From: Nitrospirota bacterium
Lineage (GTDB): Bacteria; Nitrospirota; JACRHJ01
DNA: 64,000 nt
NCBI GenBank assembly: GCA_049801375.1
Contig: JBARKJ010000042.1
Coordinates: forward strand, 28,703-92,702
Direction of reading: 5' to 3'
The notes under the pieces were generated by a model. The model was not told where the DNA came from and did not search any database. It worked only from the letters and a program-made list of their open reading frames with translations. Of this stretch, positions 42,820 through 61,094 are shown one piece after another (position 1 is the stretch's first letter; every line of letters begins with the position of its first letter). The position numbers and the translations under genes are program-made.

Positions 42820-44364
42820 TCACTCGCACATCTTTTCAACCGTTTTTTCGCCGCGTTTCTTAAGATATGCGAGCTTATTCAGGGCGTTAATATAAGCCTT
42901 CGCGGACGCTACGATGATGTCCGTATCGGAGCCCTGGCCCATCACCGTAAAATCACCTTCCTTTAGACGCACCACGACCTCGCCCTGCGCGTCCGTCCCG
43001 CCGGTGATGGCCTTCACTTCATAGGCGAGCATGGTGCTTCCGGTTTTGACCACCTCCGCGATTGTCCTGAGCGCGGCGTCCACCGGCCCGTCGCCGGTAG
43101 AGGACGTCTCCACCTCTTTACCGTCCACTGCCAGGACAATATCCGCCTGCGGCTTCGTATCCGTTCCGCTCCGCACGAAAAGTTTTTTCAACTCGTACGC
43201 CTGAGGTATCCGGAAAACCTCCTCCGCAATCAGCGCTTCCAGGTCCTCGTCGAATATGTCCTTCTTCTGGTCCGCGAGCTTCTTGAACCGCTCGAACACC
43301 CCGTTCAGTTCATCTTCGGAAAGCGAATATCCAAGTTGAGTCAGCCTGTTCCGGAACGCGTGCCTGCCGGAATGTTTCCCCAATATCAGGGTACTCTGCG
43401 TCAGGCCCACCGACTCCGGCGTCATTATTTCGTATGTCGATTTCTCCTTCAGGAACCCGTCCTGATGTATGCCGGATTCGTGCGCAAATGCATTCGCTCC
43501 GACTATGGCCTTGTTCGCCTGCACGGTCATTCCCGTTACGCTCCTGACCAGGCGGGACGCAGCCATTATCTCTTCCGTCACTATGTCCGTACGCGCCTCG
43601 AAGTAAGCTTCCCGCGTCCGTAGCGCCATCACGACCTCTTCCATCGACGCGTTGCCCGCGCGCTCGCCGATGCCGTTGATGGTGCATTCCACCTGCCCGG
43701 CTCCGCTCAGGACGGCCGCCAGAGAGTTCGACACCGCAAGCCCCAGGTCGTTGTGGCAATGCACCGAGATAACCGCTTTGTCGATATTCGGGACACGGTC
43801 GAATAGGGCCTTAATGCGGTCGCCGTACTCCTGCGGTATCGCATAGCCCACGGTGTCGGGGATGTTAACCGTGGTCGCGCCCGCCGCAATCACCGCCTCC
43901 ACCACCTTGCAGAGATAATCGATGTCCGAGCGTGTCGCGTCCTCCGCGGAGAACTCCACGTCGTCCGTATAATTGCGCGCCCGCTTCACCGCCGCAATCG
44001 CCATCTCCAGAACTTGCTCGCGCGTTTTCTTGAGTTTGAATTTCAGATGTATGTCCGAGGTCGCGAGAAACGTATGTATCCGTCCGCGCCCGGCGGGTTT
44101 TATCGCCTCGGCCGCACGGTCGATATCCTTGTCCGTCGTCCGCGCCAGACCGCATATCACCGGTCCTTTTACCTCCTGCGCTATACGCCTCACCGCCTCG
44201 AAATCGCCTTCCGATGCGATAGGGAACCCGGCCTCGATTATATCCACCTTCATCCTGGCCAACTGCCGGGCGACCATCAGCTTCTCCTCGATATTCATGG
44301 AACAGCCCGGAGACTGCTCGCCGTCGCGTAAGGTCGTATCGAATATTTTTATGATGCGGGACAT
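42820..44364 (-). CDS. leuA: 2-isopropylmalate synthase
   Basis: 514 aa. The HMGL-like TIM barrel reads DTTLRDGEQ...[10 protein letters not shown]. The C-terminal LeuA dimerisation/regulatory domain is present. Confidence 0.9.
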
Positions 44365-44612: not shown

Positions 44613-44656
44613 AAAAAGCCCCCGCCCATTACTTGATTAAAGTAAGGGACGAGGGC
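44613..44656 (-). terminator. Rho-independent terminator downstream of pssA (end of the ilv-psd-pssA operon)
   Basis: The minus strand reads GCCCTCGTCCCTTACTT...AAGTAATGGGCGGGGGC followed by TTTTT. The stem is imperfect but GC-rich. Confidence 0.45.
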
Positions 44657-44904
44657 TGATAAATTTTCCCCCGCGGTACCACCCTAATTCAACGGTAAAG
44701 TTAATTACCGCCGCGCTTGATTCGTCTTTTACGCAGACTCACGGAGGGAACTAATGAGGGATAGCCAGCGTATTTTTAGTTCGCTGCGTATATGCCCCCT
44801 CGCGCCCCCGGCTCCGAGGCGAGTTCAGCGGAAGTCGGCACCGGTTTACACCACCCACCGGCTCTCTTTGGCCGCTTGCCGCCTACTACTCCTCTTCTCA
44901 GCCT

Positions 44905-45627
44905 TTATGCTTGTGGCCTCATCTTAACCCGTCTTTTTCGGAATGTCAATACCCACTCCACCAGGGCCCAGGCGATGTATGCCATGCTCAGGATAAAAAG
45001 CACCACCGGCGGGTTCGCCGCGACAGCCACCAGAAGGACCACCGCCACCAGGAGCATCCAGAAAGGACGCCTGTCCCGGACGTTCAGTTCCTTTAAGCTA
45101 TGGAAGCGAACGGTGCTTATCATAAGTAATGCGACTATATAGATCATAATGAGGACGAGGAAGTTCTGCGGCGGTATAACGGAAACAACGTCGGTCCAGA
45201 ATATGACAAATGTCGCCAGGGCCGCCGCACCGCCGGGAATGGGAAGGCCCGTGAACCATTTCTTCTCCGAACCAACCTTCTGCACGTTAAACCGCGCAAG
45301 CCGAAGCGCACCGCATACGACAAAAGTGAACGCGCCTACCCAGCCCCAGCGATGGAAAGGCATCAGTGCCCAGATATAGAACATCACTGCGGGCGCAACG
45401 CCGAACGAGACCAAATCCGAGAGCGAGTCCAACTCGACTCCGAACTGGCTGGTGGTCTTGGTCATCCTCGCCACCCAGCCGTCCAGCGCGTCGAAAATGG
45501 TGGCGGTAAGTATGGCCCACGCGGCCATGTCGAAGTCGCCTTTTATGGAGGCGACTATGGAGAAAAAACCGAAGAACATCCCCCCGACCGTCAGGAGGTT
45601 CGGGAGTATGTAGATGCCTTTCCTCAA
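44905..45627 (-). CDS. pssA: CDP-diacylglycerol--serine O-phosphatidyltransferase (CDP-alcohol phosphatidyltransferase family)
   Basis: 240 aa. The CDP-OH transferase motif is DALDGWVAR...G...D..SD.V.FGVAP. It has multiple TM helices. Confidence 0.8.
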   Translation of the reverse strand: MRKGIYILPNLLTVGGMFFGFFSIVASIKGDFDMAAWAILTATIFDALDGWVARMTKTTSQFGVELDSLSDLVSFGVAPAVMFYIWALMPFHRWGWVGAFTFVVCGALRLARFNVQKVGSEKKWFTGLPIPGGAAALATFVIFWTDVVSVIPPQNFLVLIMIYIVALLMISTVRFHSLKELNVRDRRPFWMLLVAVVLLVAVAANPPVVLFILSMAYIAWALVEWVLTFRKRRVKMRPQA

Positions 45628-58407: not shown

Positions 58408-59676
58408 TTACGGTTTCGTGATTTTTACGCTTCCAATCTTCCTCTCATCCATCTCAAGCACTTCAAATTTCAATTCCTTGTATTTCAGGGTCTCGCCAGG
58501 GTGGGGCATCCTGCCGAAAAGCCCGAAGACGAAGCCTCCGATGGTGTTAAAGTCCTTTGACTGGATGTTTATCCCCGTCTCCTTGCTCACCTCATCGAGG
58601 TCGGCGGCGCCTGATACAACGAAGTTCTTCTCGTCGACTATCTGGACTTCGCTCTCCTCCCTGTCGAACTCGTCGTGTATGGAGCCGACTATTTCCTCCA
58701 GCAGGTCTTCGAGCGTTATAAGCCCGGCCGTGCCGCCGTACTCGTCTATGACGATGACCATCTGTATCTTCTGGTCCTGCATCTCCGTAAGGAGTTCCCG
58801 TACCCTCTTTGTCTCCGGGATGAAATAAGCCGGCCGGACCATTCTTTTTATTGTATCATTTTCATCCAGTTCGCCGCGGGATAATGCGATAACCAGATCT
58901 TTTACATAAAGGACGCCCTGCACATCGTCCACGGATTCCTCGATTACCGGATAACGTGAATGCCCGTGCTCCGCCACGAGGGAAAGCGCTTCCGAGACCT
59001 TCGCGTCGTTAGGGATAGAGATTATCTCCGTCCTCGGGCGCATGGCCTCAAGGGCAAGGGTATCGCCGAACTCGAATACCTTGTGGAGCATTGCCTTTTC
59101 CTCCACGTCCAGCGCGCCCTCCTCCTGCCCTATGGATATTATAGCCTTTATCTCGTCCTCGGTCACGAAAGGCGATTTCTCCACCTTTCCGCCCAACAGC
59201 CTGATAATCACATTGGTAACGCTGGTAAAAACCCAGACGATTGGATGCATCAGGGTTATGACAAATTCCATCGGCCTGGCAACCATAAGCGCCACCCGCG
59301 AGGCGTTGGAGGCGGCAAATGTCTTTGGAGTTATCTCGCCGAACATGACGATGAAGACCGTCATTACGACCGAGGCGATCACCGTTACTGGCCGGTATGC
59401 CGGGAAAAGAGATATGGCGAGCGCGGTGCCCAGGGAGGATGCCAGGATTATAAAGAAGTTTTCCGTAAGGAGTATGGTGCCGAAAAGCCTGCCGTGCTCC
59501 TCCCTTATCCTCTGGACCGATTTGGCGTTCGGGTTCCCTTTCTCCACCATGCTTCTTATCCGAAGACGGTTGACTGAGATCAACGCCGCCTCGGAGCTGG
59601 AGAAAAAGGCCACGAACAAAACGCATATTACGATGATTATAATGCTCAGAACGGGGGGGATTGCCAGCGATTCCAT
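58408..59676 (-). CDS. CNNM/CorC-HlyC family transporter (DUF21 + CBS pair + CorC_HlyC)
   Basis: 422 aa. The N-terminal 4-TM DUF21 is followed by tandem CBS domains and the C-terminal transporter-associated domain. Confidence 0.8.
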   Translation of the reverse strand: MESLAIPPVLSIIIIVICVLFVAFFSSSEAALISVNRLRIRSMVEKGNPNAKSVQRIREEHGRLFGTILLTENFFIILASSLGTALAISLFPAYRPVTVIASVVMTVFIVMFGEITPKTFAASNASRVALMVARPMEFVITLMHPIVWVFTSVTNVIIRLLGGKVEKSPFVTEDEIKAIISIGQEEGALDVEEKAMLHKVFEFGDTLALEAMRPRTEIISIPNDAKVSEALSLVAEHGHSRYPVIEESVDDVQGVLYVKDLVIALSRGELDENDTIKRMVRPAYFIPETKRVRELLTEMQDQKIQMVIVIDEYGGTAGLITLEDLLEEIVGSIHDEFDREESEVQIVDEKNFVVSGAADLDEVSKETGINIQSKDFNTIGGFVFGLFGRMPHPGETLKYKELKFEVLEMDERKIGSVKITKP

Positions 59677-59804
59677 TTACTCCTCTTGCCATTTTCCAAA
59701 AAAACGAAGGGGCGCAAGAATCTTACGCCCCATCCCTTGCTGCGATTTTAAAATTATAGCATAACAACATAATTTTTTTAATAAAAAAATACTTTCGGCA
59801 TATC

Positions 59805-59837: not shown

Positions 59838-59944
59838 TAAATAAAACTAATATTTTTATTTTATTTGACAAAATATTAAATGTACTATATTAATTTATTA
59901 ATCCATTTTAATCTTAGAGAAAACCATCATGAGAAAGGAGCGAG

Positions 59945-60526
59945 ATGAAGGAATTAGTCGGAGGGATGCTGAATGGGATGAAGGACGTGCTGGCTGCGAA
60001 AGCCGGTGAGGGCTCATTGGAGAAAATTTTAATGCATTCCGGTATAACCGATTTTTCGGTCCTCGATTCGCCCGAAATCCCGGCAAAGGCACTATTGGAA
60101 GTACTGGAAAACCTTTGTAGAACGTTAAATATTCCACTTGGAGAGACCGCGGAAGTCTATGGCGAGCACTGGTTCAGGCATTATATCCCCAGGATTACGC
60201 CCTATCTCGGGGCGGATATTAATAACTCCAGATCTTTTTTATTAAAATTAAACGAGATACACTCGCTGTCCCCGACCGACGGCAAGACCCTCCCGTTTTT
60301 TCATTATAACTGGAAGGATGAGAACACGCTGATGCTGAGCTGCATCGGCTTCGACGAATGGGAAGACCTGCCCTACTACCTCTTTAAGGGCATGGTCAGC
60401 GGAGTGGCGAAATTCTATAACGAAGACCTGCGGATATTCACGGGCCCTTCAAATGACTTCATCATAATTTTCCCGGAATGCGAAATCAAAAGAAGGAAAG
60501 TCCGACAAGCAGGAAGCTCGAATTAA
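59945..60526 (+). CDS. H-NOX (heme NO/O2-binding, HNOB)-like domain protein; conserved proximal His, but the YxSxR propionate motif is absent
   Basis: 193 aa. The alpha-F helix signature LGADINNSRSFLLKLNEIHSLS aligns with sGC/Tt H-NOX LGxNxxxFLxNLDxLHxxL. The conserved Pro in TLPFF follows. Where the YxSxR motif would be, the sequence reads LMLSCIGFDE. The RBS aggag sits 5 nt upstream. Confidence 0.5.
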   Translation: MKELVGGMLNGMKDVLAAKAGEGSLEKILMHSGITDFSVLDSPEIPAKALLEVLENLCRTLNIPLGETAEVYGEHWFRHYIPRITPYLGADINNSRSFLLKLNEIHSLSPTDGKTLPFFHYNWKDENTLMLSCIGFDEWEDLPYYLFKGMVSGVAKFYNEDLRIFTGPSNDFIIIFPECEIKRRKVRQAGSSN

Positions 60527-61094
60527 TGCTCGAGTTGGGGGCTTTTATATGGGCGTTGGAGATGTGCCTATAGCGGTACTGGATGTTTATGGCCCGCTTA
60601 TCGTCCAGGAAATACTGCACTCCGAGCCCGGTCTGGATTATGAAATTGAAATCCGTCCCCTGCACCTGGTGCCCTATCGGCTCGTAAATCGCCCCAAAGC
60701 CAAACGTCGAATAGGGCGACCACCTGCTTTGAAGAGCTGTGAAGTTGTACTTGAAACCGGCAAACGAAAGCCCTGCCTCAACCTTTCCGTTCGGGTGCGT
60801 TATCACCCCCACTACTGGCTCCGCCTGGTACTGGACCAGGCCCCGGAAAAATGAAGTCCCCATTTCTTTTTTTGTCAGGAGAATAGATAACGACGGCATG
60901 AATACCGCGTCCTCTATGCACGGCTGGACGGCGTGGTGGTCCATAGCCCAGCCATACCCGGCTAAAAAGCCGATTTCATAGGGGCTTTTGAGGAAGATGT
61001 CTTTAGAATCCAGGTCCGCGGCGAAGGCGGGAGTCGCCGTAATGGCAAAAAGAAGTGCGACTAAAAAAAATTTTCGCATAAAGTGTTTAAACAC
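60486..61094 (-). CDS. PagL-like outer-membrane lipid A deacylase / acyloxyacyl hydrolase family beta-barrel
   Basis: 202 aa. The signal peptide is FLVALLFAITATPAFA. The 8-strand-like body has the C-terminal ...YRYRHISNAHIKAPNSSINS (His/Ser pair of PagL) and ends in ...VGLSFF. Confidence 0.5.
   Translation of the reverse strand: MFKHFMRKFFLVALLFAITATPAFAADLDSKDIFLKSPYEIGFLAGYGWAMDHHAVQPCIEDAVFMPSLSILLTKKEMGTSFFRGLVQYQAEPVVGVITHPNGKVEAGLSFAGFKYNFTALQSRWSPYSTFGFGAIYEPIGHQVQGTDFNFIIQTGLGVQYFLDDKRAINIQYRYRHISNAHIKAPNSSINSSFLLVGLSFF

Follow-up and report, generated by a model that had tools for sequence, protein, structure and literature searches.

One gene in the window (the whole stretch of 64,000 nucleotides of Nitrospirota DNA that was analysed) encodes a small protein that is, judged by profile and predicted fold, a true H-NOX homolog, and in which the clamp for the heme propionates has given way to an acidic loop. 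The leading explanation, which we hold at about an even chance, is that this protein is a bacterial 'pseudo-H-NOX', lacking canonical heme binding and working with a partner to which its gene is not linked. If a variant with a non-heme ligand is counted as well, loss of canonical heme binding becomes fairly likely. The heme-loss reading rests on the change from a basic clamp to an acidic loop, on a relaxed proximal loop, on fast evolution, and on erosion seen in both a probable ortholog and a paralog. The protein is probably no longer a classical heme gas sensor, and it would sooner be expected to bind a different ligand or none, as the sequence-only reading had cautiously suggested.

H-NOX is the model for heme-based NO sensing in bacteria and in human soluble guanylate cyclase (sGC), and its YxSxR clamp is a site that is also occupied by heme-mimetic sGC activator drugs. 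A stand-alone bacterial H-NOX protein that has lost this clamp and turned acidic there, has kept its histidine and its hydrophobic pocket, and is under purifying selection would be a natural experiment on the fold without canonical heme binding, and the protein of this clade might give the sGC α 'pseudo-H-NOX' its first counterpart in bacteria. Membership in the family is already public through the NCBI annotation: an exact-sequence look-up retrieves an entry with the identical protein (MGC2423591.1, 'MAG: heme NO-binding domain-containing protein [Nitrospirota bacterium]'). No paper on H-NOX in Nitrospirota, or on any bacterial H-NOX without YxSxR, came up in literature searches, and the variant itself (bacterial, stand-alone, with the His kept, YxSxR turned into an acidic loop, and purifying selection) was not found in the searchable literature. 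It serves as a warning that the label 'heme NO-binding domain-containing protein' does not guarantee heme or NO sensing. However, the practical impact is limited, as the clade is small and uncultured.

Family membership and predicted fold

59945..60526, + strand: H-NOX-like open reading frame, 193 aa (ORF listing, HNOB match, exact-sequence look-up, dN/dS)
59966..60436, + strand: HNOB domain, residues 8-164 (Pfam, AF2 model, Foldseek)

The gene had been described from its letters alone as coding for a stand-alone H-NOX-like protein, a description that has held up in every testable respect: the product is a 193-aa single-domain protein, and the Pfam family HNOB (PF07700) is recovered well above its curated gathering cut-off (50.1 bits versus 25.5 bits; E=3.9e-13). 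The match spans residues 8-164 of the protein and positions 4-161 of the profile, and thus covers 158 of the 163 positions. No NCBIfam model matches the 193-aa protein, and a profile search with V4R (PF02830), a related small-molecule-binding fold, gives no match to it at E<=1. When the single sequence is used in a phmmer search of the PDB, nothing is found beyond marginal matches of the N-terminal part to Shewanella H-NOX (E about 0.5), and consequently a family profile is needed. With such a profile, the solved structures of stand-alone bacterial H-NOX proteins are matched at E=1e-22 to 1e-35, including Nostoc Alr2278 (2e-35), Tt H-NOX (5e-30), and Shewanella H-NOX (about 1e-23), and sGC β1 is matched at 9e-27.

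Structure prediction leads to the same assignment. An AlphaFold2 (AF2) model built on a 96-sequence alignment (pLDDT 78.7, pTM 0.73) has the H-NOX fold, with helices αA-αG and four strands; a model built on a 10-sequence alignment (pLDDT 62.7) was too uncertain for use. In a Foldseek search with the predicted model, the top 44 PDB matches are all H-NOX (TM 0.59-0.73, probability 1.0), and every PDB match at E<=1e-3 is an H-NOX domain.

Retained and lost determinants of heme binding

60170..60172, + strand: W76, distal-pocket Trp, aligned with Tt N74
60260..60262, + strand: H106, proximal histidine on helix αF, codon CAC, aligned with Tt H102
60263..60298, + strand: post-His loop, residues 107-118 (clade entropy, alignments)
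60341..60355, + strand: C133-I-G135-F-D137 at the YxSxR heme-propionate site (MAFFT alignment)
60341..60379, + strand: acidic, lengthened strand-to-helix αG loop, CIGFDEWEDLPYY (alignments)

The heme pocket was compared in a MAFFT alignment of 102 related cluster representatives with the variant clade (nine representatives). A Tt H-NOX sequence served as a ruler, and its numbering reproduces the published positions H102, P115, Y131, S133, R135, and Y140.

Part of the pocket has been kept. The αF signature noticed in the sequence-only reading is present (YLGADINNSRSFLLKLNEIHS), and within it H106 takes the place of the family's proximal His, a residue found in 98% of the 102 clusters and in 9/9 clade representatives. 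The distal Trp is present in 95% of the family and, as W76, again in 9/9 clade representatives; by residue count of the Nostoc sequence, W76 presumably corresponds to Nostoc W74. The Tt pocket residues I5, W9, I75, F78, M98, Y140, and L144 correspond to M8, M12, F77, Y80, L102, L146, and M150, all of them hydrophobic, and these positions are invariant in the clade except for M12 (8/9). Three of the residues are bulkier than the family norm (I to M at 8, V/I to F at 77, and L to M at 150). However, 39% of all alignment columns are invariant among the nine clade sequences, which are close to one another, and thus the invariance of the pocket is weak evidence either way.

The YxSxR triad, in contrast, has been lost. 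A survey of homologs gives Tyr in 98%, Ser in 97%, and Arg in 96% of the 102 clusters. In the clade, the Tyr position reads F in five of the nine representatives and C in the other four, the Ser position reads G in 9/9, and the Arg position reads D in 8/9 and E in 1/9; the sister subclade has F-x-G-x-D/E. The earlier claim of a missing triad therefore stands, but the exact C-x-G-x-D register that was given with it depends on the placement of gaps, and a canonical-only HMM sets the gaps in the window sequence slightly differently. Residues 133-143 (CIGFDEWEDLP) include four that are acidic but not a single R, K, S, T, or Y, and the loss is therefore independent of the alignment register. The net charge at the triad site is about -4. 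The acidic loop is four residues longer than that of the family, and its W139 and P143 do not vary within the clade.

The loop that follows the proximal His has changed as well. It is 2-4 residues shorter than in the family, depending on the alignment, and it is the most variable segment of the clade, with an entropy of 1.33 versus a mean of 0.48 and 8% invariant columns. Its Pro-Pro doublet, present in the family at 96% and 97% for the two positions, reads L116-P117 in the window protein. The downstream Pro that had been pointed out from the sequence is thus confirmed, with P117 (60293-60295) aligning with Tt P115, the Pro by which the heme is distorted. Among the clade representatives, the first Pro is replaced by L, S, or N, and the second is found in 7/9; some members retain PP. 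Such variability would be the pattern expected from relaxed constraint on the proximal face of the heme.

Candidate metal sites were also considered. Heme-free Vibrio cholerae H-NOX can still signal through a zinc/Cys redox site, in which three Cys and a Gln or His of the C-terminal subdomain take part (PMC7108781). A site of this type was rejected here because the conserved Cys are lacking: the only Cys of the protein are C58, C133, and C179, and the 70%-identity subclade, half of the clade, has neither C133 nor C179. A His75-x3-His79 metal site on a helix was another candidate; H75 is Arg in one relative (P0005) and H79 is Cys in another (P0173).

Distribution, descent, and selection

The variant is confined to a narrow group. 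A word-index homolog search returned nine close relatives only, 69-87% identical, and the GTDB genome set holds five species-level relatives, all Nitrospirota MAGs. When 1.84 billion cluster representatives were searched exhaustively with an HMM, 119 clusters were matched at E<=1e-3, most of them stand-alone proteins of about 173 aa, and the cluster of the protein itself (E=1e-113) stood far apart from the next match (E=5e-23). At 50% identity the variant clade forms one cluster, every member of which comes from a Nitrospirota MAG. In a crude NJ tree, it is monophyletic and nested among canonical members, with a stem of 0.27 versus a median internal branch of 0.014; its position within the canonical members indicates that the loss of the motif is derived.

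The gene is evolving rapidly but is maintained by selection. Pairwise dN/dS is 0.08-0.14 (0.32 for the closest pair), and synonymous sites are near saturation between the subclades, a combination that argues for selective maintenance. For the same genome pairs, dN is 0.17-0.19 for the H-NOX-like gene versus 0.03-0.06 for Mdh, UXS, and Ugd, so that its rate is 3-5 times that of its neighbours, the highest of any gene in the neighbourhood. Protein identity between loci is accordingly 70-74% for the H-NOX-like protein, 81-85% for PagL, and 89-95% for Mdh, UXS, Ugd, and CNNM.

L018 457-1041, + strand: P0011 gene (ENA ERZ21869494, contig of 1086 bp)
L011 10754-11335, + strand: tandem second H-NOX-like copy, 193 aa (Nitrospirota MAG MFD00991.bin.2.105, CAVTDB010000001.1)

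Comparison of the subfamily clusters suggests that loss of the triad is rare but not unique, as it is at least partly lost in about 4 of some 107 clusters (the clade, P0011, P0096, and P0108). P0011 is the closest relative outside the clade, at 31-35% identity. It reads YSLRW for YxSxR and TP for PP, it keeps the His, and it has a W-x3-P feature in common with the loop of the clade. Its gene convergently overlaps a gene whose C-terminus is identical at 15 of 21 positions to that of the UXS-like epimerase/dehydratase of the window, and no PagL gene lies between the two at this locus. Because of this overlap with the end of a UXS-like gene, P0011 is probably a distant ortholog, at what would be an intermediate stage of motif erosion. 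A metagenome scan with the clade and P0011 revealed no further intermediates, only clade members and canonical YxSxR relatives.

The tandem copy at L011 is 50% identical to the first copy of that locus, and it has replaced the proximal His with Tyr (LNELYF) and W139 with Arg. The overlap with PagL has been inherited by the second copy, and the first keeps a tail that now overlaps nothing. However, the second copy is a singleton in a database of 5.8 billion protein sequences, and it comes from a long-read MAG in which both CNNM and PagL are split by frameshifts; as a sign of continuing erosion it is consequently suggestive only. At another locus, L014 (10001-10580, MAG MFD00008.bin.1.129), the H-NOX-like gene itself is frameshifted near codon 119. 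Long-read assemblies are prone to indel errors, and this MAG is, to judge from its name, presumably such an assembly, so that the frameshift is probably an assembly error rather than the mark of a pseudogene.

In a separate observation, the gene for P0108 (L017 5001-5522), a triad-less relative with the His, is flanked on one side by genes for a DAGK-type lipid kinase and an acyltransferase and on the other by a spermine-synthase-like gene, and all of them share a strand.

Gene neighbourhood and expression signals

58408..59676, - strand: CNNM/CBS/CorC_HlyC transporter, divergent neighbour (PF01595, 175.8 bits; CBS; PF03471)
59865..59891, + strand: promoter-like TTGACA-N15-TATATT, 5' of the H-NOX-like gene (intergenic alignment of the clade)
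60486..60526, no strand assigned: convergent 3' overlap of the H-NOX-like and PagL genes, 41 nt (ORF coordinates)
60486..61094, - strand: PagL-like outer-membrane lipid A 3-O-deacylase, convergent neighbour (PF09411, 62.9 bits)

The surroundings are as they had been described from the sequence, with the CNNM transporter on one side, PagL and its 41-nt convergent overlap on the other, and no adjoining kinase, GGDEF, or MCP gene. The H-NOX-like gene is monocistronic, being divergent from a CNNM-mdh-... operon and convergent with a ...-ugd-uxs-pagL operon. Its ATG start codon is preceded by a ribosome-binding site (AAGGAG, 59935-59940), and both this site and the promoter are kept in the clade. 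The promoter-like sequence is almost invariant across the clade, and the rest of the intergenic DNA diverges. A consensus promoter scan did not list it, since the scan demands a spacer of 16-18 nt. An Rfam scan of the intergenic region gave no match.

The overlap with PagL is the same at L001, L002, L003, and L005, and the synteny, overlap included, is kept in every relative. As a result, the C-terminal tail of the H-NOX-like protein, about 14 residues (approximately 181-193), is antisense to the last strand of PagL (...LLVGLSFF). An ending in ...SFF is typical of the last β-strand of PagL, and the PagL Pfam match extends to residue 199 of 202. In the AF2 model the tail has a pLDDT of <50 at residues 185-191. 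Thus, the overlap with the last strand of PagL explains why a tail that is disordered is nevertheless conserved. No terminator-like site was found between the H-NOX-like and PagL genes, so that the two might be coupled in their expression through convergent transcription.

The conserved neighbours are CNNM, Mdh, PagL, UXS, and Ugd, with LptD further along, and the conserved +/-8 kb contains no kinase, cyclase, or MCP gene. The 15 kb upstream carries housekeeping genes (ilv/leu genes, phospholipid synthesis, and tsaB). Signalling genes do lie 7-8 kb away at L002 and L005, but they are not conserved. A functional link to CNNM or PagL through synteny was considered and set aside as uninformative: the flanking genes are 81-99% identical among the loci, and the synteny consequently reflects close relatedness rather than functional coupling. 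Canonical members of the subfamily are themselves often orphans, located beside FGE-sulfatase, PALP, FtsH, or pantothenate genes, and some canonical relatives are found in NO/c-di-GMP contexts, with PilZ-Hcp (L016) or with a response regulator and GAF-GGDEF (L021).

Comparison with known H-NOX proteins

The nearest relatives are the stand-alone H-NOX proteins of the subfamily of about 173 aa (for example, proteins of Omnitrophica MAGs), at 25-31% identity and E=1e-23 to 1e-10. They have the same length and topology and are often orphan genes, but they keep the His, the PP, and the YxSxR almost without exception. The well-known bacterial stand-alone proteins (Nostoc Alr2278, Shewanella SO2144, and Vibrio cholerae H-NOX) likewise have the same fold, a similar size, and a single domain, and they have in common with the Nitrospirota protein the proximal His on αF, the distal Trp, and a non-polar residue at the Tyr140 position. 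Unlike them, the Nitrospirota protein has no YxSxR, an acidic loop longer by four residues, a shorter and variable proximal loop, and an eroded PP; it also has no adjoining histidine kinase or diguanylate cyclase gene, and it carries the tail of some 14 residues within the PagL overlap.

A closer parallel in one respect is provided by the α subunit of sGC. The YxSxR motif stabilises the heme propionates, and no heme is bound by the H-NOX domains of sGC α, from which the His (human) or YxSxR (moth) is missing (PMC8196705). The Nitrospirota protein resembles these, and especially Manduca sexta α1, in being an H-NOX fold that is missing a heme-binding determinant, here YxSxR. However, in sGC α the domain belongs to a cyclase heterodimer of several domains, with an N-terminal helix filling its pocket (PMC8196705), whereas the protein described here is a bacterial protein of a single domain, not included in a PAS-coiled-coil-cyclase polypeptide, with only 3 extra N-terminal residues relative to its family. 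The losses in sGC α and in the Nitrospirota protein are independent.

Explanations for the loss of the clamp

Taken together, these results have led to a model in which the protein would descend from canonical stand-alone heme H-NOX sensors within one narrow, uncultured Nitrospirota lineage. In this model, the machinery that anchors the propionates of heme b would have been lost. Y, S, and R have become C/F, G, and D/E in a lengthened acidic loop, one of the two conserved prolines has also gone, and the loop that wraps the proximal face of the heme is shortened and evolves freely; the hydrophobic lining of the pocket, the distal Trp, and the proximal His remain. The gene is under purifying selection, with its own conserved promoter and no operon partner, and it would specify a protein without canonical heme binding, operating in a heme-independent mode comparable to that of the heme-free sGC α H-NOX domain. 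It may thus be a small adaptor or regulatory protein that acts by protein-protein contact with a partner encoded elsewhere.

However, it should be noted that the invariance of H106, W76, and the pocket is what would be expected if a planar hydrophobic cofactor were still bound, and that in many heme proteins the heme is retained with no buried clamp on its propionates. Both points count against a pseudo-H-NOX, and the first favours another explanation, possible but on balance doubtful, in which the protein is still a heme-based gas sensor. Heme would then be held through the Fe-His106 bond and hydrophobic packing, its propionates would be exposed to solvent or contacted by other residues, and the partner would again be encoded elsewhere. 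The Leu at the position of the O2-binding Tyr140 of Tt H-NOX, as in NO-type members, fits with such a sensor, for which NO would be a likelier gas than O2. In addition, the orphans of the canonical subfamily make a missing linked partner not unusual, and the NO/c-di-GMP contexts noted above belong to the nearest canonical relatives. What argues against a heme sensor is that all three propionate ligands have been lost and that about four carboxylates and no basic residue are found at the site; in mutagenesis of sGC β1 by Schmidt et al. in 2004, Tyr135 and Arg139 were reportedly needed for heme retention. Furthermore, constraint on the proximal loop is relaxed, some members lack one proline of the doublet or both, and the paralog at L011 tolerates the change of His to Tyr.

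An unlikely alternative, well behind retention of heme, is that the hydrophobic pocket now accommodates a ligand other than heme, such as a lipid or acyl chain, a carboxylate-free tetrapyrrole, or a cationic or amphipathic molecule drawn by the acidic rim. Related folds, V4R and Bet3, bind small hydrophobic molecules or palmitate. The lining of the pocket remains hydrophobic and, M12 apart, invariant, with some residues bulkier than usual, and the new rim is acidic; moreover, envelope-lipid genes (PagL, UXS, and Ugd, with LptD at a greater distance) adjoin the gene, and the triad-less P0108 also has a lipid-related context. The argument from context, however, comes from two loci only, the synteny within the clade, where neighbours are 90-98% identical, reflects close relatedness, and the gene is monocistronic and convergent to PagL, and thus not co-transcribed with it. 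A more specific form of this idea, in which a bacterial H-NOX fold that once sensed gases through heme now serves as the receptor for a lipid, an acyl group, or a tetrapyrrole lacking carboxylates, is at most equally improbable; given the PagL/UXS/Ugd/LptD neighbourhood, the function of such a receptor might be tied to remodelling of the outer membrane or of lipid A. The idea that the gene is a decaying, non-functional H-NOX remnant could appeal to its being the fastest-evolving gene of the neighbourhood, to the loss of hallmark residues, and to the frameshift at L014. But dN/dS is about 0.1 across pairs with near-saturated synonymous sites, the 193-codon reading frame is intact at all loci but L014, whose MAG is a likely long-read, indel-prone assembly, and the promoter and ribosome-binding site are conserved. 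A remnant is consequently very improbable, and the selection data essentially exclude a dead gene.

Other features near the gene

The leader of the divergent CNNM gene (59709-59781, - strand) contains a conserved promoter-like TTAAAA-17-TGnTATAAT at 59781-59753 and, 3' of it, a conserved 10-bp GC hairpin followed by a U-run at 59731-59709. The stem is kept among relatives and the loop varies. The hairpin matches no Rfam family, and it may be a candidate attenuator.

Elsewhere in the window, a T-box leader (RF00230; 114 bits versus a gathering score of 93) lies at 44642-44908 on the - strand, just upstream of a leuA-like gene for 2-isopropylmalate synthase (42820-44364, - strand). T-boxes are known mostly from Firmicutes, and this one is in a Nitrospirota genome. 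Beside mdh, a string of genes that is conserved at L001, L002, and L005 (53691-57457 in the window, - strand) encodes a ketoacyl synthase, an SRPBCC/polyketide cyclase, a peptidase U32, and a UbiE-like methyltransferase, and may represent a candidate module for oxygen-independent quinone biosynthesis.
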